This document shows positions 9,172 through 37,589 of a DNA stretch of 37,589 nucleotides, one piece after another (the first letter of the stretch is position 1; each line of letters opens with the position of its first letter). Source of the stretch: Laspinema olomoucense D3b (GTDB lineage Bacteria > Cyanobacteriota > Cyanobacteriia > Cyanobacteriales > Laspinemataceae). The position numbers and the translations under genes were made by a program. Location: assembly GCF_025370785.1 (NCBI RefSeq), contig NZ_JAMXFA010000001.1, positions 299,902 through 337,490 of the forward strand, given 5' to 3'. Below the pieces are notes generated by a model that did not search any database, had not been told where the DNA came from, and was given only the letters and a program-made list of their open reading frames with translations.

Positions 9172-9314
9172 AATTTTTGCCCCAACATGGAACTGTCAAA
9201 TCCAAATTGTAGCAGATTTTGGTCGAGTTCAGTGGGGTGGAGTATTTCTCCAGCATCGCCCATCTGTTTCTGCCAGAAGAAAAATATCCAGGAGAGCCAG
9301 AAATTTGCCCGATG

Positions 9315-9827
9315 TCAACGATTTTGAAAAAGCTCTTCAACCGACTTCATCGGCAAATATAGCTTCATCGGCTCCTCATTAAATTGCTTAAAGCCGTATT
9401 TGATATAAAAGCTCAACGCTTTATCATTCAAGGCTTTGACAATGACAGCGATCGATGCAACTTGCATGGCAGCATCTAAATACTTTTGAAGGGCATTTAT
9501 CAGTAACAGTTCACCCAAACCCTTGCCTTTTTGCTCATTATCAACCGCGAGACGACCTAATAGAGTGGCCGGTAATGCTGGATACCGGGGTAATCGTTTA
9601 GCAAAGTTTTCTTCCAAGGCTGCCACATTAACCGTGTAAGAAGAGAGTGTATAGTAACCTAAAACATCCATCTTCGGCTCATCAATTAAAACAAATACAG
9701 TGGAGACCCGGTTTTTCAGGTCTTGAGAGGCTTGTTGTCGGATGTAGGTATCTAAACTTTCTTCTCCACAGCAAAAGTTGGAGCGGATATGGGTTCGACT
9801 CTCAAGCAGGTTGATTTTAAGAACCAT
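9315..9827 (-). CDS. GNAT-family acetyltransferase toxin of a type II TA pair (TacT/KacT/AtaT-like).
   Basis: 170 aa with the 'FCCGEESLDTYI', 'LGRLAVDNEQKGKGLG' and 'SFYIKYGF' motifs. Its ATG overlaps the antitoxin stop (TAATG). Confidence 0.85.
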   Translation of the reverse strand: MVLKINLLESRTHIRSNFCCGEESLDTYIRQQASQDLKNRVSTVFVLIDEPKMDVLGYYTLSSYTVNVAALEENFAKRLPRYPALPATLLGRLAVDNEQKGKGLGELLLINALQKYLDAAMQVASIAVIVKALNDKALSFYIKYGFKQFNEEPMKLYLPMKSVEELFQNR

Positions 9828-10114
9828 TAGCCCGACATCACCTGTTTGTACCGTAAAGCTGCTGATTTTAAAGCATCATTAGGTTTCGGAGGAGTGAGAA
9901 TCGCATCCACAAACGCTTCACTGTCTTCCCGACTTAGCTTGAGAGTTTGGTGATGCTCAATCACCCTGTAGGCTTCTGCTTGAATAGCTGCCACCACAAA
10001 ATCTGTCAGGGTTCGTCCTTGTAAATCAGCAGCCTTCTGCACAAGAGCCTTAGTTTCCTGGCTGATACGAGCTTCCAGCCGCGCTGAGGATTTGGAATCC
10101 GTTGGAGGAGTCAT
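9827..10114 (-). CDS. DUF1778 (ribbon-helix-helix) antitoxin, TacA/KacA-like partner of the GNAT toxin.
   Basis: 95 aa; 'RLEARISQETKALVQKAADLQGRTLTDFVVAAI' is the DUF1778 signature. GGAG lies 9 nt upstream of the ATG, and the gene is translationally coupled to the toxin. Confidence 0.85.
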   Translation of the reverse strand: MTPPTDSKSSARLEARISQETKALVQKAADLQGRTLTDFVVAAIQAEAYRVIEHHQTLKLSREDSEAFVDAILTPPKPNDALKSAALRYKQVMSG

Positions 10115-10154
10115 GGGGGTTGCTCCGTAATATGAGATAAAAGCTATGAATTAA

Positions 10155-10185
10155 GGATATACGGCAATTTGCCGGATGTCAACCC
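10155..10185 (-). promoter_or_regulatory. Candidate TA-operon promoter with an embedded palindromic operator.
   Basis: On the minus strand, TTGACA, then a 15-17 nt spacer containing the perfect palindrome CGGCAAATTGCCG, then TATATC. It sits about 30 nt upstream of the antitoxin start. Confidence 0.35.
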
Positions 10186-10389
10186 GGGGCCGGGTTCTCC
10201 CCAAGTTGATGAACCTTCAGTAAAATAGGTGCAGTGGCGGAGGGACGGGGTATGGATGCGAAGCAGTGGCTCAAGGTGAATCGAATTTTTGGCGGGGATG
10301 GTTTCCATTCCGTACAGAAGCCGACCCCTCTGAACTCAAAGAGGAGTCTGGGGAATTGCCACAGCGGGGTTTGGGGGGAGCGAATTGAT

Positions 10390-11199
10390 TTATCCTTGAC
10401 CGTCAGCAAAGCCCGGATATAAGGTCATCCCGCCATCGACGAAGATGGTTTCTCCATGTACATAGTCTGACTCATCCGAGGCTAACCAGACGGCAACTTT
10501 GGCGATATCTTCGGGAACGCCAATCCGTTTGTAGGGAATCAATTTGAGCAGTGCGGCTTCGTCTTCGGGGGTATCCCAGGCATCTTCATTAATGGGAGTT
10601 TTAATGGCACCGGGGGCAATGCCATTGACGCGGATTTTGTGGCGGGCAACTTCTTGGGCGATACTTTGCATAAACAGTTTGATTCCGCCTTTAGAGGCGG
10701 CATAGTTGGAGTGACCGGCCCAAGGTATCACTTCATGGACGGAACTGATAAAGATAATTTTACCGGCAGCGCGCGATCGCCCTTCAACGATACCCCGGCG
10801 CATAAATTCTTTCACCGCTTCTCGGGTACAGAGAAATGGGCCTGTGAGGTTGACGTCTATGACTTTTTGCCATTGCGCTAGGGTCATATCTACAAGATTT
10901 GCATCTTGCTGAATTCCTGCATTATTGATTAAAATATCAATTGTACCAAACTGTTCACAGAGTTGAGAGAAGATTTTTTGCACATCCTCTTCTTGGCTGA
11001 CATCCCCTTGAATGGCGATCGCCTCCCCGCCCTGGGATGTGATTTCGTCAACCACTTTCTTTGCCCCTTCCGGACTGCTACGATAGTTCACAACTACTTT
11101 CGCCCCAGCCTTTCCCATTCCCAAGGCAATTCCGGCACCAATTCCCGAACTTGAACCCGTCACCAAAACCACTTGATTTTCTAAAATTTTTCCATTCAT
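10390..11199 (-). CDS. SDR-family oxidoreductase, glucose 1-dehydrogenase-like.
   Basis: TGSSSGIG cofactor motif, NNAG, and the S...YxxxK catalytic triad (SSVHE...YAASK); 269 aa. Confidence 0.85.
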   Translation of the reverse strand: MNGKILENQVVLVTGSSSGIGAGIALGMGKAGAKVVVNYRSSPEGAKKVVDEITSQGGEAIAIQGDVSQEEDVQKIFSQLCEQFGTIDILINNAGIQQDANLVDMTLAQWQKVIDVNLTGPFLCTREAVKEFMRRGIVEGRSRAAGKIIFISSVHEVIPWAGHSNYAASKGGIKLFMQSIAQEVARHKIRVNGIAPGAIKTPINEDAWDTPEDEAALLKLIPYKRIGVPEDIAKVAVWLASDESDYVHGETIFVDGGMTLYPGFADGQG

Positions 11200-11414: not shown

Positions 11415-11617
11415 CAACAACCGGCGGGGCAACAACCGGCGGGGCAACAACCGGCGGGGCAACAACCGGCGGGGCAACAACCGGCGGGGGATAAATCCCC
11501 CGCCTCATAGCTAAAGTCGGTTAAAACCGACTAAAAAGCCCACGGTATCAGACTTGCAGTCGGTTTTAACCGACTTAAGTTGTTAGGCGGGGGTTTGAAC
11601 CCCCGCCGGTTGTTGCT
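11415..11617. repeat. Nested palindromic element. Five tandem copies of the 15-mer CAACAACCGGCGGGG, then four hairpins in mirror order, ending with the inverted 15-mer.
   Basis: Tandem copies at 11415-11489. Hairpins ggcggggg/cccccgcc (11483-11504), agtcggtt-aa-aaccgact, agtcggtt-tt-aaccgact and ggcggggg/cccccgcc (11587-11608), followed by ggttgttgc (the reverse complement of gcaacaacc). Confidence 0.7.
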
Positions 11618-11668
11618 ACTCGGGGGTCATTCCCTAAAATTACAGAAAAAAGGTGTATTAAACTAACT

Positions 11669-12931
11669 ATGCTCCCAATTTGGATTGCAACAGTAGCGTG
11701 GGGACTCGGTTCTATTCTATGGGCGGAACTGGTACGAGATTTGTATCATGCTTTTGCCCATGTTTGGCAACCTCTCTATCGCTTGCACGTTTGGCATCAT
11801 CGCGTTTTTCGTCCGAATCTCACCCCAGCGAGTGAAGAGATTTATCAACAAGCGCATTGGCGCAATGACGTACCCGAGGCCCTGGTGATGCTGGGGTTTG
11901 GGCTGTTGTGGTGGTTAGGGGCCTATCTGGTTCTTCCGAGTTACCATTGGGTTGCTGGGATTGGTTGTCTTTATACCCTCAGCTTTTTAGGCAGTGCGAT
12001 CGCCCGGGGTTCGGGAGTTCCAGGGGCCGATCGCCTCACGGATTTGACTCACCAACCGGGTCCTTTTGCCACTCCACCCTCGCGATGGTTTGTGAATCGT
12101 CCCTACCATTGGCGACACCACTTTGATAACCAAAATGCTTACTTTTGCGGGACGTTTACTTTTATAGACAAACTTATGGGAACTGCACTTTCCCTCAAAG
12201 GCAAAACCGTAGCGGTGACTGGGGCCTCTGGAACCCTGGGGCGATCGCTGTTGTTGCATCTCCATGAAGCAGGGGCCAAAGTTATCGCCCTCACCTCTGG
12301 CAACGAGGCAGTCGCCTTAACCCTAGAGTCAGAAACCCTGGAGGTGAATACCGTTACCTGGCAAATCGGTCAAGAAAATGACTTAGCGGCGTTATTTGAA
12401 AAGGTCGATATTCTCATCCTCAATCATGGCATGAATGTCAATGGCGATCGCACCCCAGAGGCGATCGCCACTTCCTATCAAGTCAACGCCTTTTCTGCAT
12501 GGCGTTTGATGGAACTATTTTTCACCACCGTTCGTACTAATCAAGACATCGCCCGCAAAGAAGTCTGGGTTAACACATCCGAAGCAGAATCCAATCCTGC
12601 CTTTAGTCCCCTGTACGAACTCACCAAACGCACCCTTGGGGATTTAGTCACCTTGCGCCGATTAGATGCACCTTGCATCGTTAGAAAATTGATTCTTGGC
12701 CCCTTTAAAAGCAACCTCAATCCTATTGGGGTCATGTCTGCCGATTGGGTTGCTAAACAAATCGTCAAACAAGCTAAAGCGGATAATCGGAACATCATCG
12801 TCACCATTAATCCCCTGACTTTTATTACCTTTCCCATCAAAGAACTGTTGAACTCAGTTTACTTTAAACTGTTTAGCCGTCCAGGGATTAAGGTAAGCCA
12901 ACCCCCAGAAACAAACCACTCCTTGCCCTAA
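11669..12931 (+). CDS. Bifunctional fatty-acid hydroxylase/sterol-desaturase-like membrane domain fused to an SDR dehydrogenase.
   Basis: N-terminal half has three histidine boxes (HAFAH, HVWHH, HWRHH) in hydrophobic segments. C-terminal half has TGASGTLG and SDR-like catalytic residues. 420 aa. Confidence 0.8.
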   Translation: MLPIWIATVAWGLGSILWAELVRDLYHAFAHVWQPLYRLHVWHHRVFRPNLTPASEEIYQQAHWRNDVPEALVMLGFGLLWWLGAYLVLPSYHWVAGIGCLYTLSFLGSAIARGSGVPGADRLTDLTHQPGPFATPPSRWFVNRPYHWRHHFDNQNAYFCGTFTFIDKLMGTALSLKGKTVAVTGASGTLGRSLLLHLHEAGAKVIALTSGNEAVALTLESETLEVNTVTWQIGQENDLAALFEKVDILILNHGMNVNGDRTPEAIATSYQVNAFSAWRLMELFFTTVRTNQDIARKEVWVNTSEAESNPAFSPLYELTKRTLGDLVTLRRLDAPCIVRKLILGPFKSNLNPIGVMSADWVAKQIVKQAKADNRNIIVTINPLTFITFPIKELLNSVYFKLFSRPGIKVSQPPETNHSLP

Positions 12932-12989
12932 CCAGGTGGGGGACCTCAAACGAAGCAACCCCCTACAGCATAGGACAAGCCACCGTTCC

Positions 12990-15110
12990 TAATCCCCGAC
13001 TCAAAACCAACAATCCCGCCGGTATTTCTACCAGCGGGATTGCCTGTTATTTTGCTTTATTAAAAAGACCTAACGGCCTGTCTTATCAGCACCTAGCTCG
13101 GTGCGCTTTCTTATGTTTTTAATATAACTGAATTGTCCAGGAAAGTTTATACCTCTAAGGATAGAACCTGTTGCTACCTCTGGGGAGCATCTCTAAGCTA
13201 CTTCTCCCTATAAACACTCAGCCTTGAGGATGTGAGCTTTTACTCCTACTCAGGGATAAAATCTCCCTCAAAATCAACAATCCCGCCAGAAGATTTCTAG
13301 CGGGATTGCCTATTATTTTGCTTTATTAAAAAGACCTGACGGCCTGTCTTATAAGCACCTATCTTGGTGCGCTTTCTTATGTTCTTAATATAACTGAATT
13401 GTCCGAGAAAGTTTATCCCCCTAAAGATAGAACCTGTTGCTACCTCTAGGGATAAGCGCCCACCCTTTTAGGAACTCCTTCATCAGGCATTCACGGTTTT
13501 AAAGTCCCTGTGCTCTTCAGCCCGGGTTGGGGGCTTTGTTCCTGTAATTGCACCCTTAAATTTGTCGGCTTTTACTGGGATTAACCAGAAAATTCCTGGG
13601 TGAAAATCAACAATCCCGCCAGAGGATTTCTAGCGGGATTGTCTGTTATTTTAATTTATTAAAAAGACCTGACGGCCTGTCTTATCAGCACCTATCTCGG
13701 TGCGCTTTCTTATGTTCTTAATGTACCCGAACTCTAGGGCAAAGTTTATCCCCCTACAGATAGAACCTGCTTCTACCTCTTCCGGTAGCCTCTTGGTAGC
13801 AACGACACCTCCCCGAGATTGCGGTTGGGAACATAAAACTATCAACTCCTAGAAACCAACAATCCCGCTAGAAGATTTCTACCGGGATTGTCTCTTATCT
13901 TGATTTATAATCTGGGCTTACTAAAAAGGCCGAGGGCCTGTGTTATGAGCACCTATCTCGGTGCGGTTTCTTATGCTCTTACTTTATCTGAAGCTTGAGG
14001 GAAAGTTTATCTATCTACAGGTAGAACCTGCTTCTCCCCTTCCAGACGCCTCTTAGTAGTAATAAACACACTGCTAAATTGCTGTCTGAGAACAGAAATC
14101 ATCAACTCCTCAAAATCAACAATCCCGCCAGAGGTTTTCTAGCGGGATTGTCTCTTATCTTGATTTATAATCTGGGCTTGTTAAAAAGGCCGAGGGCCTG
14201 TGTTATGAACACCTATCTTGGTGCGGTTTCTTATGCTCTTAATATAGCCGAACCTGGAGAGGCGGTTTATCTATCTACAGATAGAACCTGCGGCTACCTC
14301 TTCTAGCGGGCAAGGACCCTCTCCACTGGCGATCGCCTGGGGCAATGCCAGTCAACCCCTCAAAATCAACAATCCCGCCAGAGGTTTTCTAGCGGGATTG
14401 TCTCTTATCTTGATTGATTAAATCGGGTTACTAAAAAGACCTGGAGGTCTGTGTTATGAGCACCTATCTCGGTGCGGTTTCTTATGTTCTTACTTTATCT
14501 GAAGCTGGAGGGAAAGTTCATCTATCTACAGGTAGAACCTGCTTCTCCCCCTTCCAGACGCCTCTTAGTAGTAATAAACACACTGCTAAATTGCTGCCTG
14601 AGAACAGAAATCATCAACTCCTCAAAATCAACAATCCCGCCAGAGGTTTTCTAGCGGGATTGTCTCTTATCTTGATTTATAATCGGGGCTTACTAAAAAG
14701 GCCGAGGGCCTGTGTTATGAGCACCTATCTCGGTGCGGTTTCTTATGCTCTTACTTTATCGGAAGCTTGAGGGAAAGTTTATCTATCCACAGGTAGAACC
14801 TGCGGCTACCTCTTCTGGTAGAGAATTATTGTCCCCTTATCGAGGCATTTCACTAAACCTCCCTTTCACTCGATTTAAACTGTATAGCATACCCTACAAG
14901 GAAACCCTAAAGACTAACAATCCCACCAATGTTGCCACAGGTGGGATTGTCTCTTAATCTATATTTTTTAAAAAGACCAGGGGTCTATGTTATGAGCACC
15001 AGAATCTCGGTGCGGTTTCTTATGTTTTTAATGTATCTGAATTTTTTAGAAGATTTATCCCTCTACCGATAGAACCTGCCTCTGTTCCCGGGGATAACCT
15101 GTGGTGGTTC
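12990..15110. repeat. Tandem array of eight units (about 240-330 bp). Each has a conserved core of roughly 160 bp with three hairpins, plus a variable tail of 70-160 bp. Candidate structured-RNA gene array, or ssDNA hairpin/origin array next to the primase gene.
   Basis: Hairpin A starts near 13010, 13277, 13611, 13860, 14120, 14362, 14633 and 14920: ACAATCCCGCC, a 12-nt loop, then GGCGGGATTGT. The last copy carries the compensatory variant CCCACC...GGTGGG. Hairpin B varies as GGCC-gag-GGCC, GACC-tgga-GGTC, GACC-agg-GGTC and aagac...gtctt, so pairing is kept while the sequence changes. Hairpin C is GCACC-tatctc-GGTGC followed by GGTTTCTTATG. No ORF is conserved across the units. Confidence 0.8.
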
Positions 15111-15341
15111 AAATTTGGGTCTGGTCCTGGTCCCACTCGGACCCTATTTGTCATCCATTGCCGCGATCGCCACAATAATCCATGCAACAATTCCTGCCAA
15201 CTCGGGCTTAATCTCGGATACCATCGACCTCTAGGGACCTTTAATATTAGAAACCGCTATAAATAGACCTGAAAATCGGGTCTCTCCCTCCAGTTGTGAT
15301 TGAGTCAGAAACCCGACTTTAATGCAAAATTCTCCCTAAAA

Positions 15342-17807
15342 TTAAGGATTATGCCACTTTAAACCCGTCAAAAATGTGCCTTGTTCATCCCCGCCTTTTT
15401 TCGCTTTTGGAAACATAGACAGGAGACGAACCGGGACCTGATTTAGGGTTTTGCAATGCCGATCGCTGGCAGAGGGTAAGTCATACCACAGCAGTTTCTC
15501 CCGAGCGCGATCGCTGACTTCTACCTGTAAAATCCCCGTATCCTGATACCATTGCCGCAACTTTTGCCAAATCTCTTGGACATAAACCCGAGAATCTGGG
15601 TCCTCCACTAACCCCGAATCCTTGACAAATTGCCACAAATGTTCCGAAGCGCATTGGATTTGGGTCATCGCTTCTTGGGTAGGACTATAGTCAATCCCAT
15701 CACGCATCAACCGTTGTAACGCCTCCAAGAGGCGGTTCAAATAAGCAGGCAGCACTTTGGATTTTAAAAACTCCGGGTCATATTTGAATCGGGGATCCGC
15801 TGGCAATTCCCCGCGTCGGGGGTTGGGGTTGACGGCAAAAGTTTTAGTAAACGGCAACACCGCATAGCGACTGCGAATTGCTTCCATGACTCCCGCTAGT
15901 TCCGGGATATCGTTCCAATTAAAGATAAACACCGCATTAATCGCCGTTTCATAATCATCTTTGCCTTTGCGTTCAATCACAAAGGACCGATCGCCGGTAA
16001 TGGCAATTTTCAAGCATTGCAGGCGGTCCAGGGCCTCAGCATTGCGATTTTCTGAGGGCCAATTCACCCGGGACCCTTCCAATCGGGCAACGGGAAACAA
16101 CCGTCCGCGATCGGCTTGTTCAAAGGCTTCCACGGAAACCGAGGTCAATCCCTGATAGCCATACAGCATTGCTGTGACTTCCCGCAAACTATCCTTCCCA
16201 TTGTTGCCATCCCCTTTGGCAAGTAATGCTTTAACCATTCGTCCTTTTAACCGGCGGACCGATTCTAAATCCAGGGATGCCGCAATGGTTTTTAGGAAAA
16301 TATCCCGATATTGGGGTTCCAGACATTCCAGGAGACGATCGCAATCCGTCGGATCCGCCTCCGGGTCATACGTCACCAAAGGTTGATACAGATAAAAATG
16401 CTGGCGGGGGTCATGGGGGACCAGTTTCCAGGAGGGCTGGCCCTTGCGAGTAAACGAGAGTTGGAGAACCCCATTGGTGCAATTGAGTCCTGGGGGATTC
16501 ACCCGTCCCGGGGCGATCGCAAACATCAATTTCACCCATTCCAGGGCTTTCTTCACACTGCTGGAACTGGCGTAAGGATAGCGAATCTGCCCTTTAACAT
16601 CAATGGGAAAGGAATTGCAAAATTGCGTAATCCGATAAAGTTCTACGGCATTCGGGGAGGCTTCGTAGTAGGTCCCCTGCCATGCATAGAGGGTATTGTT
16701 GACGCAAATCCACGGGCGATCGCCATAAAGGAACTTGACAATCGCCTGGTTAAACTCCACCACCGGAAAAAAGCTATCGTAACTCTCCGTTTCCAGAGTC
16801 TGGGAGTTCCGCTGAGTCCCTTGGCGAATCACTCCCTCTAACCGTTGAATCAAATCTGAGGGAATTGCCGAATTTTCCAGCATTTCCCGAATATCGCCCT
16901 TTTCCGGCAACTCGGGATCAATCTGCGTCGGGTCCAATTCCAAACAGGGAACGCCCACTTTCGCTGCTGCTGCCGCCACCTTCGCCGCCTTTTTCCGCCC
17001 AGTTTCATCGCGATCGGGGAGGACGGCGATCGTTGCCTTCTCATTGGCATGACGCAAGCGAATCAAAAAACTCTCGATTTCCACATCCGTCCAGGCGCTA
17101 CCTTGAAACGTCACCGCAGCTAACCCCAAAGTTCGGGCAATTTCCACACAGCCTTCCCCTTCCAGCAATAACAACACGGGAAACCCTTCCACAACACGGG
17201 CGCTGGCTGCTAATGCCTCCGTTTCCCGATAGGCTTTCCAGGGGTCATTGCCTTTACTCCAAATCGGCAATCCATCCTCATTCAGGTGACATTGGCGAAA
17301 GGTTTTTTTATGACCTTTGCGCTGTTTGGGGTCCAGCCATTCAAACCGATACACCACCTGAGTCTCGCTGTAGTGGTAACGGATTTCCACCGCATGATTC
17401 GGGACCCCTTTCGGCTGAAAGGAGAGTTTTTGGGATTTAGGCGGGATACCGGGTTGGCGCAACCTTGCTAAAACCGGCTGTCCCTCGGGGAAGAGGGCGG
17501 GTTTAAAGGATTTTTGGGCGGTTTTTTGCCGGGTTGATCCCGGGGAAATACTTGTGGGGCGATCGCCCAAGGTGGCGCGAATGTCTTTACATTCGCACCC
17601 ATTCCAGCATTGATAAGCCCCGCTTTGGGGATCAACCGTTAGATTATTTCCCTGACAGACTGGGCAAATATAGCGATTTTTCTTTCCAGCCACGGGTTCT
17701 AAGGTTTCTACCCAGTTGAGCATATTAAATGGACTCCCACTGGCAACTTTGACAGATGCAGACAGGAATTCAGCGCTGATGCTGGCATCACGGGTAGAAT
17801 TGAACAC
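15342..17807 (-). CDS. Primase/replication protein of the P4-family or CyRepA type: N-terminal zinc finger, Toprim-like domain, C-terminal P-loop NTPase (D5_N/primase-C).
   Basis: CPVCQG...CWNGCEC zinc ribbon. Toprim acidic motifs (LLLLEGEGCVE, VLPDRDETGRKKA). Walker-A-like GDGNNGKD inside a phage/plasmid primase C-terminal domain. GTG start with AAGGAG 6 nt upstream. 821 aa. Confidence 0.7.
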   Translation of the reverse strand: MFNSTRDASISAEFLSASVKVASGSPFNMLNWVETLEPVAGKKNRYICPVCQGNNLTVDPQSGAYQCWNGCECKDIRATLGDRPTSISPGSTRQKTAQKSFKPALFPEGQPVLARLRQPGIPPKSQKLSFQPKGVPNHAVEIRYHYSETQVVYRFEWLDPKQRKGHKKTFRQCHLNEDGLPIWSKGNDPWKAYRETEALAASARVVEGFPVLLLLEGEGCVEIARTLGLAAVTFQGSAWTDVEIESFLIRLRHANEKATIAVLPDRDETGRKKAAKVAAAAAKVGVPCLELDPTQIDPELPEKGDIREMLENSAIPSDLIQRLEGVIRQGTQRNSQTLETESYDSFFPVVEFNQAIVKFLYGDRPWICVNNTLYAWQGTYYEASPNAVELYRITQFCNSFPIDVKGQIRYPYASSSSVKKALEWVKLMFAIAPGRVNPPGLNCTNGVLQLSFTRKGQPSWKLVPHDPRQHFYLYQPLVTYDPEADPTDCDRLLECLEPQYRDIFLKTIAASLDLESVRRLKGRMVKALLAKGDGNNGKDSLREVTAMLYGYQGLTSVSVEAFEQADRGRLFPVARLEGSRVNWPSENRNAEALDRLQCLKIAITGDRSFVIERKGKDDYETAINAVFIFNWNDIPELAGVMEAIRSRYAVLPFTKTFAVNPNPRRGELPADPRFKYDPEFLKSKVLPAYLNRLLEALQRLMRDGIDYSPTQEAMTQIQCASEHLWQFVKDSGLVEDPDSRVYVQEIWQKLRQWYQDTGILQVEVSDRAREKLLWYDLPSASDRHCKTLNQVPVRLLSMFPKAKKGGDEQGTFLTGLKWHNP

Positions 17808-25914: not shown

Positions 25915-26509
25915 CTAGCTTGCCTGTTTACGTTACGTTTCTTAAATTTTACCTAAATCAGCAAGCATCCTCCCAGGTTATCGGGATGTTTCTCCTCTCG
26001 ACCCTGGTTTCAAGCCCTCGGGTCAAGGGTTCTAAGGACTTAAGTTGATGTATTGAGCACCGGCGGTAGTCCTTACAGAGCCTTGACCTAAATATGGAAA
26101 ATTGGGCAAACCGTTCGGTTAGCCCTCCTGTCTCTATTTGAGCAGTTCACGCTCATTCTACGGATTAATTATCTGGTTCCAACGAGCACCACACTCCGAC
26201 CGGATAGTACCTTTATCAGGTACGGTTTTCTCTCTGTGGCCGATCGCCTTCCATCAGGTTTAATGGCGATCGCTCCATGAACAGGATCAGCTTTCAAGCG
26301 CTGTCCTGAGTTCTGTCATGAGGAATGGGAATGACTGGAAAAATTGTAGGATGCACCCTGGAATGAATTGCTCAGTTGCGCTGACGGATGAGCGCGAACC
26401 CCTTAGACTATAGGGACTTTTGGCTTGGAACTTACGTCGGTTCAAGTCTGTGTCGATCTTAACCTGGGAATGATCAGCGCGCTCGTTAATGGGGCGATCG
26501 GTTGGGTTC

Positions 26510-26686
26510 TTATCGTCCACTTCCCCGATGATCCGGTTCGGTTCCACGAGGGACATCAGCGCTGGCAATTTGGGCATTTGCATCGGATTTATTTTCTTTT
26601 GAAGTAAGATATTCGCTGCCTGAAAAATTCGCATTCATCCCTAATAAAAGCAGGCCAGATAACACTAAGCATTTGTAGATGCTCAT
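26510..26686 (-). CDS. Possible small secreted protein (58 aa) with a signal peptide.
   Basis: ATG preceded by AAAGGAA with a 7-nt spacer. N-terminal pattern MSIYKCLVLSGLLLLGMNA is signal-peptide-like. The overlapping second ORF in another frame (26287-26634) makes a frameshifted gene possible. Confidence 0.25.
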   Translation of the reverse strand: MSIYKCLVLSGLLLLGMNANFSGSEYLTSKENKSDANAQIASADVPRGTEPDHRGSGR

Positions 26687-27252
26687 AGATAAATTCCTTT
26701 TTTGACGGTTATTTATCTCTACGGAATCTCTACAAAACATCCGGCTATTTTTTTAAACTATTTAGGGTGAAACTCTCTCGTAGCTAAAGCTCTAAGATCC
26801 GGAACATTTCTAAATTAAATTCGTCTGATTTCGGTATTATTCAATTCTTCTAGCTCTGATTTAGTCCCAATCCGCTGGGCTTCTAATCGCGCCACCCAAA
26901 GTCTGGAAAGAGCCAGACGGAAGTACCTCAGTTCCCCATCGGGGTATAGAAATATTCCTCGGGGGATTAAAAAATAAAGTGACCGCCACCCCATCCAATG
27001 GCAGTCACTTCTAAGGTAAGTTCTCTCCCTACACCCAACCCCCATAGCTGATTTTCAGTCCCCGAGTTTCTTAATAGTAATAAAAATTTTTAACTTTCCA
27101 ATATTATTAAAGCCACAATTTCCCCCGAGTGGGTTTAATAATATTGAATAGAGTTCTTGCTTTCATTCCGGATTGAGCCGCCTTTCCCCCGGGGAGATCG
27201 CCGTACAGTCGATGGCGTTTTTAAGGGGGAGGCCAGAGGAATAAATGTTTAA

Positions 27253-27334
27253 TAGACCTCTTGCAAAATTCTTTGAAGCCCCTCTTATTAAGGGAGAGAA
27301 AGGGGGATCAATCCTTTTTTTTGCAAGAGGTCTA
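27253..27334. repeat. Perfect 16-bp inverted repeat (TAGACCTCTTGCAAAA / TTTTGCAAGAGGTCTA) separated by about 50 nt.
   Basis: Read directly from the sequence. It lies in an AT-rich 1.1-kb non-coding stretch upstream of the M16 peptidase operon. Confidence 0.6.
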
Positions 27335-27824
27335 ATGACTGGGGCGCTGAAGAGATTTATGCAAGAAGTCTCATATCTAAATCAAATCTGGGTTCTGCAC
27401 AATGTGAGATACTTCAATAATAAATTAATGAACTAACCTAAGCCAAGGCGATCGCTCTAGGAACAGTGTAGGATTAAAAATAAGGGTTTGGTCCTCGGAT
27501 CCTTCGAGTTCCAGTCTGTAGAAATTCGGGAAATTCCGCACCCCAACCGATGTAACGCTGCTACTAAACAACACAGACTGAAAATTTTTCCATCCGGATA
27601 AAAATTAGGCAAGGGATGAGAATCCAACCCATAATAATCAAGCTGTGGGCAACTAAGCCGGGACCCCTAGGCTTTTCGGTGAGGCCCCTCTACGGAGAAA
27701 ATGGTCGAGAATGTTGCCGGTTCTCTATTGCTTTTCCCCCGTTGCGGAGAAAGTCTGTATCAATTCATGCAGCATAGTGTCAAATGAAGCGTTAGCATGA
27801 GATAATTTATCACCAAATTCAGGT

Positions 27825-29108
27825 TTGAGATTAGAAAGTTTGTCTGCACTGCTCAAGAAATCGGAGTTTCCCGGGAATATCGTAAGGCTGGCGAATGGAT
27901 TAACCGTGATTCACCAACATATCAGCGCTACACCCGTCGTTGTAGTTGATGTGTGGGTTAAAGCAGGTGCAATCCGCGAACCTGACACCTGGTCAGGAAT
28001 GGCTCATTTCCTGGAACACATGATTTTCAAAGGAACCCTAAACCAGCCGCCGGGTGCTTTTGACTGTCTGATTGAAAATCGGGGTGGGATGACCAATGCC
28101 GCCACGAGTCATGACTATGCTCACTTTTTTATTACCGTTGCCGCACCCTATTTAAAAGAAAGTCTGCCTGCCTTGGCGGATCTGTTGCTGCACCCGGCGA
28201 TCCCCGATGATGAGTTTCTGCGGGAACGGGACGTGGTACTGGAAGAAATTCGCCAATCGGTGGATAATCCTGATTGGCTGGGGTTCCAAGCGATGATGGA
28301 GACGATTTATCACCAGCATCCTTATCGACGCCCAGTATTTGGCGAGGCAGAGATTTTGATGGAGCGATCGCCCGAAGAAATGCGAATGTTCCATCGCTGC
28401 TACTACCAACCGGAAAATATGACGGTGGCGATCGTCGGCAACGTCACCTTAGCCGAAACCCTCGACTTAGTACAGGACTCCTTCAACAGCTTTCCCACCC
28501 CCCTGGAGTGGGAGGACTTCAAACAAGAAGCAGAACCCCCCATGACGGAAATTCGGCGTCGGGAACTGTTCTTACCGCGTCTGGAAGTGGCGAGGTTGAC
28601 CCTTGCCTGGACCGGACCCGGGGTCGAACAGTTGCAGGATGCGTACGGTTTAGACTTACTGGCGGTGGTCCTGGCAGAGGGGCGAAATTCCCGTTTAGTC
28701 CGAGAATTGCGGGAGATCCGGGGACTGGTTCACGGCATTGGTAGCGATTTTTCCCTCCAACGGGATTCCAGCTTGTTTACAATAGGGGCATGGCTCGATC
28801 CAAAACACTTGGAACTGGTAGAAAATGTGATTCTTGATCGCATTGAGGAGTTACAGGCTCAACCCATTAATGGGGCGGAACTGGCCCGCGCTCAACGCCT
28901 GCTCTGTAATGATTATGCCTTTTCGACGGAAACCCCGTCTCAACTGGCTGGGTTGTATGGTTACTATCAAACCATTGCCGAAGCCCCGGCAGCCGTGGCC
29001 TATCCGGATTGCATTCAATCCTATAATGCGGCAGACTTGCAGCGGGTAGCTAATAACTATTTATGCCCCAAATATTACGCAGTCACAGAACTCAAACCTC
29101 TAGACTGA
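27825..29108 (+). CDS. M16-family (pitrilysin/insulinase) zinc peptidase, catalytically competent subunit.
   Basis: HxxEH zinc motif (HFLEH); the downstream E is in frame. TTG start. 427 aa. Confidence 0.85.
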   Translation: MRLESLSALLKKSEFPGNIVRLANGLTVIHQHISATPVVVVDVWVKAGAIREPDTWSGMAHFLEHMIFKGTLNQPPGAFDCLIENRGGMTNAATSHDYAHFFITVAAPYLKESLPALADLLLHPAIPDDEFLRERDVVLEEIRQSVDNPDWLGFQAMMETIYHQHPYRRPVFGEAEILMERSPEEMRMFHRCYYQPENMTVAIVGNVTLAETLDLVQDSFNSFPTPLEWEDFKQEAEPPMTEIRRRELFLPRLEVARLTLAWTGPGVEQLQDAYGLDLLAVVLAEGRNSRLVRELREIRGLVHGIGSDFSLQRDSSLFTIGAWLDPKHLELVENVILDRIEELQAQPINGAELARAQRLLCNDYAFSTETPSQLAGLYGYYQTIAEAPAAVAYPDCIQSYNAADLQRVANNYLCPKYYAVTELKPLD

Positions 29109-33332: not shown

Positions 33333-34544
33333 TTAGGCAGTGGCTGCGTCAAGGACCTCTGAGGTTTCTTTTACGACTCCCCCCTGATCTACCCCGGAAC
33401 GCCGAGACTCAACGGGTGCGGTTGTGGAAACCATTGCTGCCATCAGTTGTTCGGGTACGACGGTAAAGGGTAGCCGATGAATATCAGAATTCGGTGCACA
33501 AGCAATTTCAGCGGCATGGTACAGTTCCCCCAAAGTGACCGTTTCTAAGCCTAAATCCATTAAGTTTTGGGGTAGCCCAATCTCGGAATAGAACTTTAAG
33601 AGTTGCTGCCTTGCACTGGCGGCTAATTGGTTCCCTTGGAGCATTTCTTCCAGGCGCAGTTGCACCAAAATACCATAGGCGACTTTCTCCCCATGCAGGG
33701 TATCATGAGCGGCTAACAGGTGGGTTAAGCCATTATGCACCGCATGAGCGGCAACGGTGCGGCATTGAGCGCCCCCGAGTCCCCCAATGACTCCGGCGAG
33801 TAACACCGTAGCATCCACAACTTCCTGCCAAACTTCTCCTCCGGGACTGGCGAGTGCCTGGGCGGATTTTTGGAACAATAGGTCCCGCAACACCCGGGCT
33901 TGTTGGACGGCGGCGATAATTAGGGTTTGTTCGGAATGTCCGCTACTGACTGAGGCTTCATACCATTTGGCGATCGCATCCCCAATTCCAGCAACTAACG
34001 TGCGTTGTGGCGCAGTTTGAATCAAGTCATAATCGAGAATCAGGACATCAGGACATTTGGGAAGGGGGACATCGTAGAGAAAGGCACCCTGATCGGAATA
34101 GATATTCGATAAGGCAGTCCAAGCGGCACAGGTAGCAGCAGAGGTGGGAATGGTGATAATGGGCAATCCACAGCGATAGGCTAGTAGTTTGGCTGCATCG
34201 AGGGATTTACCGCCCCCAGTTCCGATAATCAGATCCGCTTGATGGGTGGCAACGGCTTCTTGCAGTCGGGTGAGACTGGCTTCGCTACAGTCGGGACTAT
34301 AGGAAGCAGAGGCGATCGCTAGTTGATATTGGGCAATGGCGGGTTGTAACCGTTCCGTCAGCAGTTGATTAGAGTTCTCGCCCCCCACAATTAAGGGACG
34401 ATGCCCGTATCGGGCGATCACAGCGCCGGATTGTTCCAAACAGCCCTTTGAGCGAATCACTTGGGCGGGTGCAATACTGAGCATTGGCAGCACAGCAACA
34501 GGATTCGAGTTCGGCGTTGAGGAAGCAAAATTCTGATGGGGCAT
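33333..34544 (-). CDS. Glycerol dehydrogenase-like enzyme (iron-containing alcohol dehydrogenase superfamily).
   Basis: GGGKSLDAAK NAD-binding loop, 'IPTSAATCAAWT' and metal-binding His motifs. 403 aa; start uncertain, with an internal ATG at MLSIAPAQ. Confidence 0.8.
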   Translation of the reverse strand: MPHQNFASSTPNSNPVAVLPMLSIAPAQVIRSKGCLEQSGAVIARYGHRPLIVGGENSNQLLTERLQPAIAQYQLAIASASYSPDCSEASLTRLQEAVATHQADLIIGTGGGKSLDAAKLLAYRCGLPIITIPTSAATCAAWTALSNIYSDQGAFLYDVPLPKCPDVLILDYDLIQTAPQRTLVAGIGDAIAKWYEASVSSGHSEQTLIIAAVQQARVLRDLLFQKSAQALASPGGEVWQEVVDATVLLAGVIGGLGGAQCRTVAAHAVHNGLTHLLAAHDTLHGEKVAYGILVQLRLEEMLQGNQLAASARQQLLKFYSEIGLPQNLMDLGLETVTLGELYHAAEIACAPNSDIHRLPFTVVPEQLMAAMVSTTAPVESRRSGVDQGGVVKETSEVLDAATA

Positions 34545-34855
34545 ACAGATCTAGAGAAGTTTTGCTGAGGTTTAGCTGGGGTGAGTGGGATGAGTATTTA
34601 TAACTCTACTGTATTCGGGGATTCCCGATTGTGGCGGGGATTTTATCTAAATTTCGGGATTGCGCCCTGACTCTCCCACTGGCGCTCGACCCTGGATATT
34701 TTGATTTTAAGTGGTTTCCCCATCAACCTGCACTCCCGGTTGAGTCATTGTCAGGGAAACTTGTGCTTTAACCAATAACTTTGCCAAAAAAGGGAGGGCT
34801 AAGGTAGTCCACTTGTTGTTTACCACAATTAGATAAGACATTTACATTTTTTTTC

Positions 34856-35038
34856 TTGATTCGCGAAGACCAAAAACAAGCGGCGCGATCGCAGGTGGAG
34901 GCGAAGTTAATCGAGGGTTTGGAGAGTGGCCAACCCATTGAAGTAACTGATGAGTGGTGGGAACGAAAGGGCAGTGCCATTCGGTATGATGTTGTAATGG
35001 GGTTGGTTAGTAGCTCCTTCCTTACTTTTCTGACTTAA
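34856..35038 (+). pseudogene. Remnant of a ParD-family (COG3609) type II antitoxin: C-terminal half only, fused to unrelated sequence.
   Basis: 'IREDQKQAARSQVEAKLIEGLESGQPIEVTDEWWERK' matches the ParD C-terminal region. The N-terminal RHH DNA-binding half is missing, and no ParE toxin follows. Confidence 0.5.
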
Positions 35039-35242
35039 AAGGTAAGCGTAGAAACCCACATTTTCATAAGTATTTTTACTTAAAACAAGATATCACAGGT
35101 TGTTAATAGGACACCTTTTGGCGCTGCTACACACTCCGGCGAAAGTTATGTTGATTTATGTGCATCTACCTATGAGTGTGCTAAACAGATTTATGATATA
35201 GTAAACTGGATCCCAAACATGGAGGGAAAAGGAGAGGTCAAA

Positions 35243-35503
35243 ATGGCAACTCGTCGTCAATTCTCTCCAATGCAAAAGTTAATCATACTGCAACGTGCTG
35301 GATATCGTTGTGAAATATGTGGGGTTCCTCTAACCCCTGATAATTTCCATGCCGATCATAAAATTCCATTCTCGCGCGGAGGCAAGACAGCTATTTATAA
35401 TGGTCAAGCTCTCTGCTGTGGGTGCAACCTCTCTGCTGTGGGTGCAACCTCAAAAAAGGAGCTCGCCAATAATGACCGGATCCTCATACTTCTCCCAACA
35501 TAG
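35243..35503 (+). CDS. Small HNH endonuclease (86 aa as it stands; about 76 aa without the tandem duplication).
   Basis: ATG at 35243 with AAGGAGAG 7 nt upstream. Zinc and catalytic pattern CxxC...HADHKIPxxxGG...N...CxxCN. The 3' end is altered by a 20-bp duplication. Confidence 0.7.
   Translation: MATRRQFSPMQKLIILQRAGYRCEICGVPLTPDNFHADHKIPFSRGGKTAIYNGQALCCGCNLSAVGATSKKELANNDRILILLPT
35409..35450 (+). repeat. Perfect tandem duplication of a 20-bp segment (CTCTGCTGTGGGTGCAACCT x2) inside the HNH gene.
   Basis: Read directly; the two copies are identical and adjacent. The length is not a multiple of 3, so the HNH C-terminal tail is frameshifted and extended across the helicase start. Confidence 0.9.
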
Positions 35504-37559
35504 CTCTATAGTTATTAAGAGCCTGGTTGAGGATAAGACCAAACTGTACCCTCATCAAAAGGAAGGCTTGTTAAAAATCCTTGACATGGGAGTTAAGGGT
35601 GAGTTGTTACCAGAGCGTCGTCGGGGTGATGGTGGAGCAGCTTTTCTGCTAGTAGGGGTAGGATGCGGAAAAACAGTGATTCTGCAAGCCACTCCATACT
35701 TGCTTGGATCCCACGTTCGTGGCCGACAAGTCATCTTCTTATCCGATAACTGTACGCTTCGGCAACGGGTGATGGACGACTTTCCCACAAAGAAAGCGGG
35801 AAAACAATATTTCCCAGATCAAGGTAAATGGCCGTTGTATAAGTATGGCTTATTAAATCCAGGCACTCCGCCTCCACAAATTGCGGAATTGAAACCCGAA
35901 ATTAATACTTACAAGTTCTCTATAGATAAAGCAGACATTTTAGTGGTAAATCGACAATTTTTGATTAACCTAGTCAAGAATGTAGCTATAGATCCACAAA
36001 AAGTGGGGTTAATAGTGGTTGATGAAGCTCATCATAGTGCAGCTGCCACGTATAGAGCAATTTTCAATTATTTTAATCAGGCCAGTCTTGTATTTTTAAC
36101 AGGAACTCGACATAGAGGTGATGGTGAACCCCTACCATTCGTTAAATATGAAATAGTAGAAGAGGAAGAAGAGAATGGCCGTATAGTTACAAAACGTGCC
36201 CCAAGACCCAACTTTGAGTTTACGATTCAAGATGCCTGGAAGCTCGACCCACCCATTATCAAAAAAATTGCTTTTTCTCCTGCTAGATCGGAAGGGTTTA
36301 AAGTCGAAGAGGATGGCGAAGAACGGGAATATACTGCCCAAGATTTTTTTATCAAGGCAGAAACTGATCGGCAATGGTTTAGGCAATGTATTCTCGCCAA
36401 TTCATTCTGTGAGCCAGTTTTAGATAGGGCTGTTGAAGTTTTAGAGCTTAAGCGTCAGGAAAAGCGACCTCATCGAATGATTATTAGGGCGCTGAATATT
36501 CCTCATGCAGAACGCCTGCATAAGCTATGTCAAAATTATGACTTGTTAAAAGGGAGAGTGGGATTAATTCATTCTCAAATGGATGAGTATGACTCAGAGG
36601 GTAGACCCAGTGATGTGTTAGAGAAATTCTACAAGGATGAATACATTGCTTTAATTCACGTTTCAATGGTAGGGGAAGGCTTTAATGAACCTTATGCTTC
36701 TGTATCGGTTCCTCTGTGCGTTATGCGCTCAATCCAGAAAGCGGAACAGGAATTTGGTCGCATTATCCGGAAAGTAGAGGGTGGGATACCAGAAAACGAT
36801 GCTGATTTTAAGGCAGAGAATCTAGCAGTTGTTGTCACCCATGAAGCTTTGGGCATCGCTGAACTGTTTGAAAAATTTAAAGCGGGTGAAGAAGCGACTG
36901 CGATTGAAGATGACCTAGAGGAAGAACAAGCGGAGTTTGGTCGAAGCCGATTCTTGACAGACGATTATCACGCAGGCCATAACTTACTACACATTAATAG
37001 CACAGATCGTCTAGAAAAAGGCGACCAACTGACAGTCAAGAAGTATGATAGTGAAGGCAAAGAGAAGAGATATTACTTTTCTGTAGAAGAGATTATCGGT
37101 GAAGGAACTCTTCAAGTTGCTCCTGTAGAAGAGAACATACCCAAAGACAGTCTGGCTCGAAAATCAAGCAATATTGAAAATAGTTCTACCCAATTTAAAG
37201 GTCATGTTGGTCTGGAATGGTATTTATTTATAGATGGTGAGTATGTAACCCTTACTGATTACTGTAAAAAAGAAGCAGTCCGGCGAAAAGGTTTTAAAAT
37301 TGATGAAAATGGAGAGATTGCTCGTCTTGATGGCAAGAAAATCAAGGATTTTGGGCCAGAACTTTATCAGCTTGCTTTAGAAGGAATAGCACGAGAAGCA
37401 GAAAAGATAGAGATCCCCTACACTAAGCTAGTGTCTTGCAGGCCCGACCGAGAAAAAGAAGATCTGCAAAAATCTTATCTAAAAAAAATAAATAAAGCTA
37501 TTAATGGCTTTTTAAGCAGTCATGCAAAATTAATTGCATATTTACCAAGTTTAATGTAA
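35472..37559 (+). CDS. SF2 DEAH-box helicase (ResIII-like core) with a C-terminal extension of roughly 260 aa of unknown function.
   Basis: Motif I LVGVGCGKT, motif II VVDEAHH, motif III FLTGT, motif V MVGEGFNEP, motif VI QEFGRIIRK. The ATG at 35472 overlaps the ancestral HNH stop as TAATG. The ORF tracker's start at 35349 is read-through of the HNH gene in another frame. 695 aa. Confidence 0.8.
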   Translation: MTGSSYFSQHSSIVIKSLVEDKTKLYPHQKEGLLKILDMGVKGELLPERRRGDGGAAFLLVGVGCGKTVILQATPYLLGSHVRGRQVIFLSDNCTLRQRVMDDFPTKKAGKQYFPDQGKWPLYKYGLLNPGTPPPQIAELKPEINTYKFSIDKADILVVNRQFLINLVKNVAIDPQKVGLIVVDEAHHSAAATYRAIFNYFNQASLVFLTGTRHRGDGEPLPFVKYEIVEEEEENGRIVTKRAPRPNFEFTIQDAWKLDPPIIKKIAFSPARSEGFKVEEDGEEREYTAQDFFIKAETDRQWFRQCILANSFCEPVLDRAVEVLELKRQEKRPHRMIIRALNIPHAERLHKLCQNYDLLKGRVGLIHSQMDEYDSEGRPSDVLEKFYKDEYIALIHVSMVGEGFNEPYASVSVPLCVMRSIQKAEQEFGRIIRKVEGGIPENDADFKAENLAVVVTHEALGIAELFEKFKAGEEATAIEDDLEEEQAEFGRSRFLTDDYHAGHNLLHINSTDRLEKGDQLTVKKYDSEGKEKRYYFSVEEIIGEGTLQVAPVEENIPKDSLARKSSNIENSSTQFKGHVGLEWYLFIDGEYVTLTDYCKKEAVRRKGFKIDENGEIARLDGKKIKDFGPELYQLALEGIAREAEKIEIPYTKLVSCRPDREKEDLQKSYLKKINKAINGFLSSHAKLIAYLPSLM

Positions 37560-37589
37560 AATATGCAATATTAGGCATTAAAACGCAGA

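Follow-up and report, generated by a model that had tools for sequence, protein, structure and literature searches.

Operons that pair a nuclease with an NTPase constitute a common class of defence systems (bioRxiv 10.1101/2025.07.10.664194; PMC12278908). The described systems closest to the gene pair reported here are HsdR, the SauUSI-type type IV enzymes and Hachiman. HsdR (EcoR124I, PDB 2w00; 3h1t) carries its nuclease as an N-terminal PD-(D/E)xK domain and has HsdM and HsdS as partners. In SauUSI (PDB 7clg; PADLOC mREase_IV), a PLD nuclease, the motor and a DUF3427 reader are joined in one polypeptide chain, and Hachiman (HamA + HamB) is a two-gene operon in which a DUF1837 PD-(D/E)xK nuclease precedes an SF2 helicase and a methyltransferase is lacking. 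Phage defence is also encoded by integron cassettes (bioRxiv 10.1101/2024.07.02.601719; PMC12614218), and integrons occur in cyanobacteria (PMC4889954).

The window, i.e. the whole stretch of DNA that was analysed, comprises 37,589 nucleotides from Laspinema olomoucense D3b, and a small HNH endonuclease gene followed by an SF2 helicase gene lies at its right end. On balance, we consider this pair to be probably a horizontally acquired two-gene nuclease-translocase cassette for restriction-like defence without a methyltransferase, which is decaying in Laspinema. The features of the region are, in window coordinates:

34856-35038, + strand: remnant that retains just the C-terminal half of a ParD-family antitoxin gene (tblastn and HIP1 list)
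35050-37589, no strand: AT-rich, HIP1-free island (GC 0.409 versus 0.493 for 1-35049)
35243-35503, + strand: HNH endonuclease gene, 86 aa as found (Pfam HNH; alternative ATGs at 35219 and 35270)
35409-35448, + strand: perfect 20-bp tandem duplication, twice CTCTCTGCTGTGGGTGCAAC (copies 35409-35428 and 35429-35448; periodicity to 35451)
35470-35474, + strand: TAATG, former overlap of HNH stop and helicase start, now out of the HNH frame
35472-37559, + strand: SF2 DEAH helicase/translocase gene, 695 aa (ResIII 1.5e-15, Helicase_C 1.4e-5)
35655-35675, + strand: Walker A GVGCGKT of the helicase motor
36021-36032, + strand: DEAH of the helicase motor
36747-36770, + strand: motif VI QEFGRIIR of the helicase motor
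37481-37488, + strand: A8 homopolymer in the 3' region of the helicase gene (sister-strain protein comparison and simulation)
37521-37559, + strand: non-homologous 12-codon tail HAKLIAYLPSLM plus stop (family alignments)

A reading of the window made from its sequence alone (the sequence-only reading) had proposed a small HNH gene followed by a gene for a 695-aa ResIII-type helicase, and both were confirmed by Pfam. The HNH protein as found matches PF01844 (HNH) with an E value of 2.2e-9 and 37.8 bits; it contains CEIC...ADH...NGQALCCGCN as expected for PF01844 / HNH_5 and retains the catalytic D-H...N...N residues as well as the two CxxC pairs. Its length amounts to 94 aa when counted from the ATG at 35219 and to 77 aa in the NCBI annotation, and DNA homology to relatives begins at about 35240. 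In the helicase, residues 1 to about 440 make up the motor, which starts at about residue 25, and residues from about 441 to 683 make up a C-terminal region. This region had been described as unrecognisable and indeed is specific to this family, where it measures about 330 aa at full length. The SF2 motifs GVGCGKT, NCTLR, DEAHH, TGTRHRGD and QEFGRIIR are invariant across the family, and structure modelling predicts two lobes with an HsdR-like fold. Contrary to what had been supposed, the helicase gene is not cut off by the window, since its ORF ends with a stop codon at 37557-37559, 30 bp short of the window end.

When the window proteins were compared with PADLOC and NCBIfam, no family match beyond a generic motor or HNH was obtained. 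The similarity to HsdR comes with a sequence identity of 16-17% only. Also, in contrast to HsdR, the nuclease is here a separate HNH protein of 69 aa (in its repaired form, see below), there are no HsdM/HsdS partners, and the C-terminal region of about 330 aa is unrelated. A PD-(D/E)xK domain was not detected, neither HsdM nor HsdS is conserved near the helicase in about 50 related loci, and NCBIfam EcoAI R scored 18.7 bits against the helicase at a cut-off of 550. Identity as a type I HsdR was rejected because of the lack of an N-terminal PD-(D/E)xK domain and of conserved HsdM/HsdS. Similarly, type III restriction-modification was rejected, as no Mod gene was found in the window (34.5 kb to its end) or conserved in relatives, and a PD-(D/E)xK domain was not detected either. 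Among PDB and PADLOC sequences, the helicase matches SauUSI-type type IV enzymes best, the likeness being confined to motifs II-III. However, the mREase_IV match spans only profile positions 331-376 of 953 and neither a PLD nor a DUF3427 domain was found by Pfam in the Laspinema pair, and a SauUSI-type identity was therefore rejected. With Hachiman, the pair shares the two-gene operon with nuclease first and SF2 helicase second and the lack of a methyltransferase, but it has an HNH instead of a DUF1837 PD-(D/E)xK nuclease, and no Ham profile matched the window helicase and the repaired 69-aa HNH (PADLOC, E <= 0.1) or two full-length relatives (PADLOC, E <= 0.001). No sign of DNA-damage sensing emerged for the HNH-helicase pair.

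The family to which the pair belongs is patchily distributed and almost exclusively cyanobacterial, plasmids included. A metagenome protein scan yielded one relative, which is short and internally deleted, and a literature search found no paper describing the HNH-helicase family. The top structural matches of the helicase include RadD, Mfd and XPB, which might be explained by a RadD/XPB-like helicase of housekeeping DNA repair that is assisted by an accessory nuclease. This explanation is extremely unlikely, however, given the patchy distribution, the foreign composition, the locations on plasmids and in cassettes, the frequent pseudogenes and the small size of the family, which forms only about 5 full-length clusters (50% identity) in a set of 1.84 billion representatives.

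In about 34 of 47 loci, the gene for the HNH protein is located directly upstream of the helicase gene and has the same orientation. Within the near clade, the two genes share an overlap of 1 or 4 nt, the identities of both proteins drop in parallel across loci, and the sister-tier protein P0116 is an HNH-helicase fusion. These comparisons support the view that HNH and helicase form one functional unit, in agreement with the initial description of a small nuclease coupled to an SF2 helicase. The HNH gene is the only conserved neighbour of the helicase gene across about 50 related loci, and methyltransferases account for 2 of the 133 neighbouring ORFs of related loci, so that the absence of a methyltransferase partner, too, was borne out. 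The suggestion that the system may continue past position 37589 was not supported, as in relatives the HNH-helicase pair is the whole conserved unit; according to the family alignments, the missing piece is only the last ~90 aa of the helicase itself.

An intact, working defence system with more components (methyltransferase, specificity subunit or sensor) just beyond 37589, including type III or type I-like restriction-modification, would be consistent with the Pfam ResIII match, the HsdR-like motor fold, a window that stops 30 bp past the helicase stop codon, and weak HsdR_N / HsdM_N fragments upstream in locus L001. Nevertheless, the conservation of the HNH alone beside the helicase, the low number of methyltransferases, the undetected PD-(D/E)xK domain, and a Laspinema copy that is truncated and frameshifted with respect to the family make such a system very unlikely, and a self-contained pair that is decaying in Laspinema remains the preferred reading.

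Relatives of the pair are found in a mobile or accessory context (Gloeothece PCC 7822 plasmid, ParAB and IS1, integrases, Uma2), and their neighbourhoods are heterogeneous with defence genes scattered among them. Several genomes possess two copies of the pair, and about ten family copies are pseudogenised. Intact pairs are represented, for example, in Vacuolonema LEGE 07170 and on the Gloeothece PCC 7822 plasmid NC_014534 at 311.6-314.4 kb. Copies on plasmids or near ParAB, IS1 and integrases, duplicated copies and pseudogenes would also be compatible with a selfish module that serves the maintenance of a mobile element, being either an HNH of the homing type that is helped by a helicase or a pair for replication-recombination of a plasmid or phage; in PHROG, DNA-helicase and HNH families were matched (E 1e-24 and 5e-13), and sister-family helicases occur on plasmids of many phyla. 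However, no relative of the helicase was found in 2.9 million viral contigs, the HNH is devoid of any domain by which homing enzymes typically bind or target DNA, genes for terminase, replication or primase are not conserved in the vicinity, and mobility, where it can be read, involves attC and hence an integron integrase acting in trans rather than the pair. We therefore judge a selfish module to be unlikely and retain the reading as a defence cassette. A phage origin was rejected because of the lack of relatives among viral contigs. As there is also no terminase gene among the neighbours of related loci, a phage terminase-associated HNH was rejected as well. Sister-family helicases encoded on Leptospira, Rhodococcus and Peribacillus plasmids have heterogeneous neighbours and provided no functional lead.

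The sequence-only reading had implied that the pair is intact. In contrast, we find that the HNH tail is frameshifted by the 20-bp duplication and that the helicase is truncated relative to the family. For the duplication, TRF reported a period of 20, 2.3 copies and a score of 87, and an exact check agrees. The duplication leads to a +2 frameshift in the HNH tail, and the conserved tail CNxxK[G/S]x, whose K[G/S]x is kept in all intact HNH copies in the family alignment of this region, has given way to a frameshifted sequence whose end lies 32 nt into the helicase ORF. By this shift of the HNH frame, the TAATG stop/start overlap is lost. Deletion of one duplication copy in silico restored a 69-aa HNH ending in ...CNLKKGARQ* with its TAA overlapping the helicase ATG, and the PF01844 match improved to an E value of 1.2e-11 and 45 bits. 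Together with the TAATG or ATGA gene junctions in relatives, this repair bears out the earlier proposal that the TAATG overlap is ancestral, and the duplication would uncouple translation of HNH and helicase. The ORFs in the window have identical counterparts among the proteins of Laspinema sp. C3/D3b / L. olomoucense, whose accessions are WP_261234223.1 / WP_353961698.1 and, for the HNH, WP_353961699.1, and strains D3a/D6 share the 20-bp duplication and have an even earlier helicase stop. As the same duplication is common to both Laspinema strain groups, a sequencing error is unlikely.

Compared with relatives of about 773 aa, the helicase is short by about 90 aa, and homology ends after residue 683. 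The lost tail corresponds to the last ~90 conserved residues, including the DGxxGxSL and NNxxLxH...K..TG..W.EH helices, and some of its helices rank among the best conserved and the most confidently modelled in the C-terminal region. No other part of the window encodes the missing C-terminus; a 26-mer of the non-homologous tail is absent from metagenome contigs, and plasmid matches of this tail are at chance level only. Comparison of proteins P0001/P0076/P0077 with the window revealed that the sister-strain helicase allele ends in '...KSYLKKK*', and the addition of two A's to the A8 homopolymer reproduces that end. This further frameshift of a sister strain in the same region suggests relaxed selection. 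Judged from the disabling-looking lesions in both genes, the Laspinema copy is probably decaying.

Function may survive the lesions, as they leave the catalytic residues of the HNH and every helicase motif unaffected. If they were tolerated, the Laspinema pair would still be working, and the duplication and the short C-terminus would be lineage-specific variants. In favour of this possibility are the intact invariant motor and HNH catalytic residues, the persistence of the same alleles in at least two strain groups, and the Shine-Dalgarno-like GGAG that precedes the helicase ATG. The loss of some of the best-conserved and most confidently modelled C-terminal helices, the presence of the K[G/S]x tail in every intact HNH copy and the additional frameshift of the sister strain argue against it, and we assign it a low probability compared with decay of the pair.

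The last 2.5 kb of the window had been described as AT-richer than the rest, and indeed GC amounts to 40.9% for ~35050-37589 and to 49.3% elsewhere. This is the window minimum, as no other 2.54-kb sliding window falls below 0.442. The GC3 values of helicase (0.33) and HNH (0.38) are below those of the 16 other long ORFs of the window (0.44-0.57). HIP1 sites (GCGATCGC) occur 62 times in the window, compared to 0.5 expected by chance, and the last one is at 34885. While it is correct that the tail is free of HIP1 after this position, its absence does not suffice as the sole sign of foreignness. The 2704-bp tail is the longest HIP1-free gap in the window and another one measures 2412 bp, but the longest of 63 exponentially distributed gaps that average near 0.6 kb is calculated to reach about 2.7 kb, and HIP1 absence alone is thus within chance. 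It becomes meaningful in combination with the GC and GC3 shift and with the HIP1-free modules of relatives. In the four nearest relatives with flanks, no HIP1 was found in the modules, whereas their flanks contain 0.4-1.8 per kb, and ~13 sites would be expected in these four modules and that of the window taken together. The modules of the closest relatives have a GC content of about 40-41.5% and lack HIP1, whatever the host. The proposed horizontal acquisition is in agreement with these data, which support the interpretation of the island as foreign DNA.

The toxin-antitoxin remnant that had been noted beside the island was confirmed as the C-terminal half of a ParD gene: residues 1-38 of the ORF at 34856-35038 match annotated ParD antitoxins with E values of 6e-6 and 5e-4 (tblastn against plasmids). 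As it carries the last HIP1 site at 34885, the ParD remnant is native DNA, and it marks the left edge of the island. No known RNA element was detected by Rfam in 34000-37589 or in loci L003, L004 and L041, and promoter and terminator scans gave matches no more numerous than in shuffled sequence.

The defining features of attC sites are their R and L boxes, a spacer that stays unpaired, extrahelical bases and the conserved triplet AAC/GTT, and arrays without IntI count as CALIN (PMC4889954). Using a covariance model, six same-strand attC-like sites that bracket the HNH-helicase pair were found in locus L041, and further sites in loci L003, L007, L022 and L037. The pair lies between attC-like hairpins in L041, L003 and L007; these hairpins show an R box containing AAC/GTT and an L box that has two extrahelical bases, together with an unpaired spacer and a variable loop. 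For the attC-like sites, 90.5% of cells pair, compared to 28-42% in slid controls, compensatory changes are present in 14 of 23 pairs, and the AAC/GTT triplet is invariant. The covariance model replaced a first search for simple ungapped inverted repeats, which had found no attC because of the extrahelical bases. Neighbouring cassettes in L041 encode a SinI-like endonuclease with a C5 methylase and a ParA-like protein with a HEPN protein. Beside the arrays no integrase was noticed; upstream of the L007 cassette, the single ORF that was looked at resembles a TPR-like protein rather than a recombinase, and there are three Phage_integrase matches among the relatives' neighbours. Going by these predicted boundaries, the HNH-helicase pair is an integron gene cassette in some relatives, within a sub-branch of the family.

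The attC-bounded pair of the relatives and the L041 array beside restriction-modification and HEPN cassettes resemble described integron defence cassettes and CALIN. However, the pair is unusually long for an integron cassette (about 2.9 kb, two genes), and the window itself shows no attC-like site: there was no match at E <= 1 in the whole window with a covariance model that is tuned to one attC type, and nothing credible in 34000-37589 with filters off, the 3' flank lying outside the window. The integron link is for this reason limited to the relatives. An L'-R'-like motif upstream of HNH (35123-35150, '...GAAAGTTATGT') was rejected as an attC remnant because it forms no hairpin (z -1.0); it was likewise missed by the attC covariance model.

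The intact pair consists of a minimal 69-aa HNH nuclease without a DNA-binding domain of its own and a helicase whose motor is of the double-strand-DNA-translocase type (HsdR / SauUSI / XPB-like), and we propose that the two proteins form a single complex. After loading, the motor would move along DNA and deliver the HNH or license it to cut, and the C-terminal region would provide target sensing and/or a docking site for the HNH. As there is no methyltransferase, foreign DNA would presumably be told apart by something other than host methylation, and the module would act in a restriction-like manner against phages or plasmids. A defence role of the pair is plausible. The best circumstantial support for the defence reading comes from the relatives and not from this window. 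Only tentatively, we suggest that the family might represent an undescribed, cyanobacteria-specific, integron-borne and methyltransferase-less defence system, in which a minimal HNH is carried and licensed by an HsdR-like translocase via a C-terminal sensor or docking domain without a known fold relative.

For the Laspinema genome, the pair would be a foreign remnant with two lesions that should probably be annotated as a likely pseudogene pair. If intact relatives are active, a cyanobacteria-restricted nuclease-translocase system would join the methyltransferase-less restriction-like defences, a catalogue so far built mostly from proteobacteria and firmicutes, and would bring with it a region of about 330 aa that is not recognised. 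In filamentous cyanobacteria, the attC-like arrays point to integron-type exchange that moves defence genes between cyanobacteria, and such cassette exchange would explain the AT-rich, HIP1-free composition that is kept across hosts.

Across the window, 62 HIP1 octamers were counted against 0.5 expected by chance, the last of them at position 34885, and the GC content from about 35050 to the window end (the island, 35050-37589) is 0.409, compared with 0.493 elsewhere in the window. The lowest 2.54-kb stretch outside the island, obtained by sliding along the window, has a GC content of at least 0.442, and GC3 values are 0.33 for the helicase gene and 0.38 for the HNH gene, compared with 0.44-0.57 for the 16 other long ORFs. 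The AT-rich, HIP1-free window end described by a sequence-only reading is thus confirmed. The terminal HIP1-free gap of 2704 bp is the longest in the window and another measures 2412 bp; by our own calculation, the longest of 63 random gaps of the same mean is expected to be about 2.7 kb. Therefore, the absence of HIP1 serves as supporting evidence only, and it is the composition shift that constitutes the strong signal. Lower-GC patches (0.415-0.46) also occur at 6000-7000, 8400-10700, 12500-15500 and 26500-28000, some of them overlapped by the HIP1-free gaps 8361-10773 and 12461-14329, and may represent other foreign or intergenic DNA. Both the proposed HNH and helicase genes and the toxin-antitoxin remnant suspected beside them were recovered.

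Features at the window end
34856-35038: ORF for the C-terminal half of a ParD antitoxin, bordering the island on its left and holding the last HIP1 site
35243-35503: HNH ORF, 86 aa, matching Pfam HNH
35409-35428 and 35429-35448: perfect 20-bp tandem duplication inside the HNH gene
35472-37559: helicase ORF, 695 aa, matching ResIII and Helicase_C

Both ORFs are identical to annotated proteins of Laspinema sp. C3/D3b / L. olomoucense on a 337-kb contig. As the helicase ORF ends in a stop codon of its own, 30 bp short of the window end, the earlier claim that the window cuts it off does not hold. In-silico loss of one 20-bp copy generates a 69-aa HNH protein ending in ...CCGCNLKKGARQ, the TAA of which overlaps the helicase ATG as TAATG; the ancestral overlap postulated from the sequence is thereby restored, and relatives have TAATG or ATGA overlaps at this junction. 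All intact HNH proteins of the family share the terminal sequence ...CNxxK[G/S][D/N]; in the window copy, a frameshifted tail that runs 32 nt into the helicase ORF before it stops has taken its place. Helicase relatives of about 773 aa (about 850 aa with an insert) align from residue 1, and alignment of the window helicase is lost after residue 683, 12 codons before its stop. It thus lacks the last 90 or so residues, including the near-invariant DGxxGxSL, NNxxLxH and K..TG..W.EH motifs, and this C-terminus was not found in the rest of the window. Strains D3a/D6 also carry the 20-bp duplication, and their helicase stops even earlier, at '...KSYLKKK', an end reproduced by adding two A's to the A8 run at 37481-37488, which varies between Laspinema strains. 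The lesions are thus real and shared between strains, and the locus looks as if it were decaying. Judged by its sequence, the window copy is a remnant with two lesions; it might nevertheless keep residual function, as every motor motif and the catalytic residues of the HNH are preserved.

Related loci (L001-L055, from genomes, metagenomes and plasmids) were found by searches with the helicase. Of 5.8 billion proteins, 75 were matched in a word-indexed search, and 45 loci came from scanning 185,579 species genomes, some of which have two copies. Nearly all members are cyanobacterial, the exceptions being one Actinomycetota and one Acetobacteraceae MAG, for both of which mis-binning is possible. 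Among 1.84 billion cluster representatives, a profile search revealed only about five full-length family clusters, the next tier (E about 1e-37) sharing only the motor (residues 1 to about 440), and no relatives were present among 2.9 million viral contigs. About ten family copies are visibly damaged, among them split helicases (L007, L040, L041, L043, L045), frameshifted HNH genes (L023, L030) and an internal helicase deletion in L052 (about 2480-2520). The metagenomic L052, at about 74% protein identity, is among the close relatives (L006, at 80%, is closer but partial), and its deletion takes out most of the C-terminal region's middle and spares the last 90 residues, the opposite of the window lesion. 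Plasmids from distant phyla (Peribacillus, Rhodococcus and Leptospira; L053-L055) carry sister-family helicases of about 25% identity, in the motor only; those of Peribacillus and Leptospira, two of the three, have a small hypothetical ORF overlapping or abutting the helicase 3' end.

When the ORFs of all loci were clustered, the sole conserved neighbour of the helicase was the HNH gene, directly upstream on the same strand in 34 loci, and no methyltransferase or other partner recurred. Therefore, the system, as read from these loci, does not extend past the pair, contrary to the suggestion that it may continue beyond 37589. In P0116, a 729-aa database protein of the sister tier, an HNH domain (residues 40-96) is fused N-terminally to the same type of motor, which is independent support for a functional HNH-motor link. 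HNH is absent upstream of the helicase in L009, L011, L019, L031 and L051. A Uma2-family (PD-(D/E)xK-like) gene lies 3' of the helicase on the same strand in L011 (6099-7004), L051 (12859-13428), L019 (230 bp downstream) and L038, where the available sequence does not reach upstream of the helicase; L018 and L029 have both HNH and Uma2. Uma2 may replace HNH as nuclease partner in some loci, or the association may be due to chance, as Uma2 is common in cyanobacteria. Metagenomic L002 has a T5orf172/MUG113 (GIY-YIG-like) + SH3 protein (12329-13483) 4 nt 3' of the helicase as well as an uncalled upstream HNH (9780-10004). Inserted DNA parts HNH from helicase in L017 (0.8 kb; 3082-3923) and L018 (3.2 kb; 6750-9985), in the latter case including an opposite-strand 542-aa ORF.

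Searches of PDB and PADLOC sequences with the helicase gave only SauUSI-type matches, confined to motor motifs II-III, and NCBIfam gave no match near its cut-offs. A separate structure model of the C-terminal 334 residues had a mean pLDDT of 73.7, with 83-94 over the last 190 or so residues. The earlier description of the C-terminal domain as unknown is thus upheld, and the part lost from the window copy is the best-modelled part of it. Membership tests placed the family outside type I and type III restriction enzymes, SauUSI-type enzymes and Hachiman.

Modules of the closest clade (window, L001, L002, L007, L041) stay at about 40-41.5% GC and contain no HIP1, their hosts having 45-52% GC and 0.4-1.8 HIP1 per kb; in the more distant clade, with proteins of about 850 aa, HIP1 is present and composition is host-like. 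DNA homology begins at G|TTATACGGCTCC, about 270 bp 5' of HNH, in L003, L004, L007 and L041, and in L003, L007 and L041 it stops immediately past a conserved hairpin, about 95 nt long, that lies 3' of the helicase stop. In this hairpin, an outer stem of 8 bp that carries AAC/GTT is followed by an unpaired 3-nt spacer and an inner stem of 15 bp from which two bases bulge, and the loop is variable, the same anatomy as that described for integron attC sites (PMC4889954); the loop motif TTGGTGG.GATGCAAAGG is kept among the hairpins. A covariance model built from four copies detected the following sites, including six on the same strand of the 12.6-kb L041 contig.

attC-like sites
L041, + strand: 1-94, 2490-2584, 3866-3960, 6034-6128, 8946-9041, 11591-11685
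L003: 2816-2911, 4695-4787
L007: 12355-12450
L022, - strand: 16205-16287
L037: 15004-15099

In 12 aligned sites, 90.5% of cells pair, compared with 28-42% in slid controls, and 14 of 23 pairs have changes on both sides, the alignment having itself been fitted to the model. The AAC/GTT triplet does not vary. The L041 pair sits exactly between sites four (6034) and five (8946), and the remaining cassettes of L041 carry genes for a SinI-like endonuclease plus a C5 methylase, for an unknown protein, for a ParA-like ATPase plus a HEPN protein, and for a LysR fragment plus a lactonase-like protein. In the L003/L007/L041 branch, the pair is thus a gene cassette that lies next to defence-type ones in an integron-type array or CALIN. 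The DNA of the array loci showed no evident integrase, and the arrays in filamentous cyanobacterial contigs look like a sedentary integron or CALIN. The model detected no attC-like site across the whole window, nor any near the island when its filters were switched off.

Elsewhere, the pair lies close to a telomere resolvase gene on a 474-kb plasmid of Gloeothece PCC 7822, in a ParAB and IS1 neighbourhood in Chroococcidiopsis, or near Uma2 genes or a TIR/STAND pair. A scan of 133 neighbouring ORFs, a raw tally, yielded accessory and mobile functions with a few defence matches and no dominant partner.

In summary, the observations of the sequence-only reading stood and its interpretation did so only in part. 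The mechanism, as suggested by the logic of the domains and by structural resemblance, would be one in which the motor tracks DNA, the small HNH cuts it and the C-terminal region senses the target or docks the nuclease. The family is best read as a putative nuclease-translocase module that lacks a methyltransferase and belongs to the broad class of nuclease-NTPase defence systems (bioRxiv 10.1101/2025.07.10.664194), of which Hachiman is an example (PMC12278908). Integron cassettes are known to carry phage defence (bioRxiv 10.1101/2024.07.02.601719; PMC12614218), and the best reading is that this module moves by horizontal transfer, in part at least in the form of an integron cassette.
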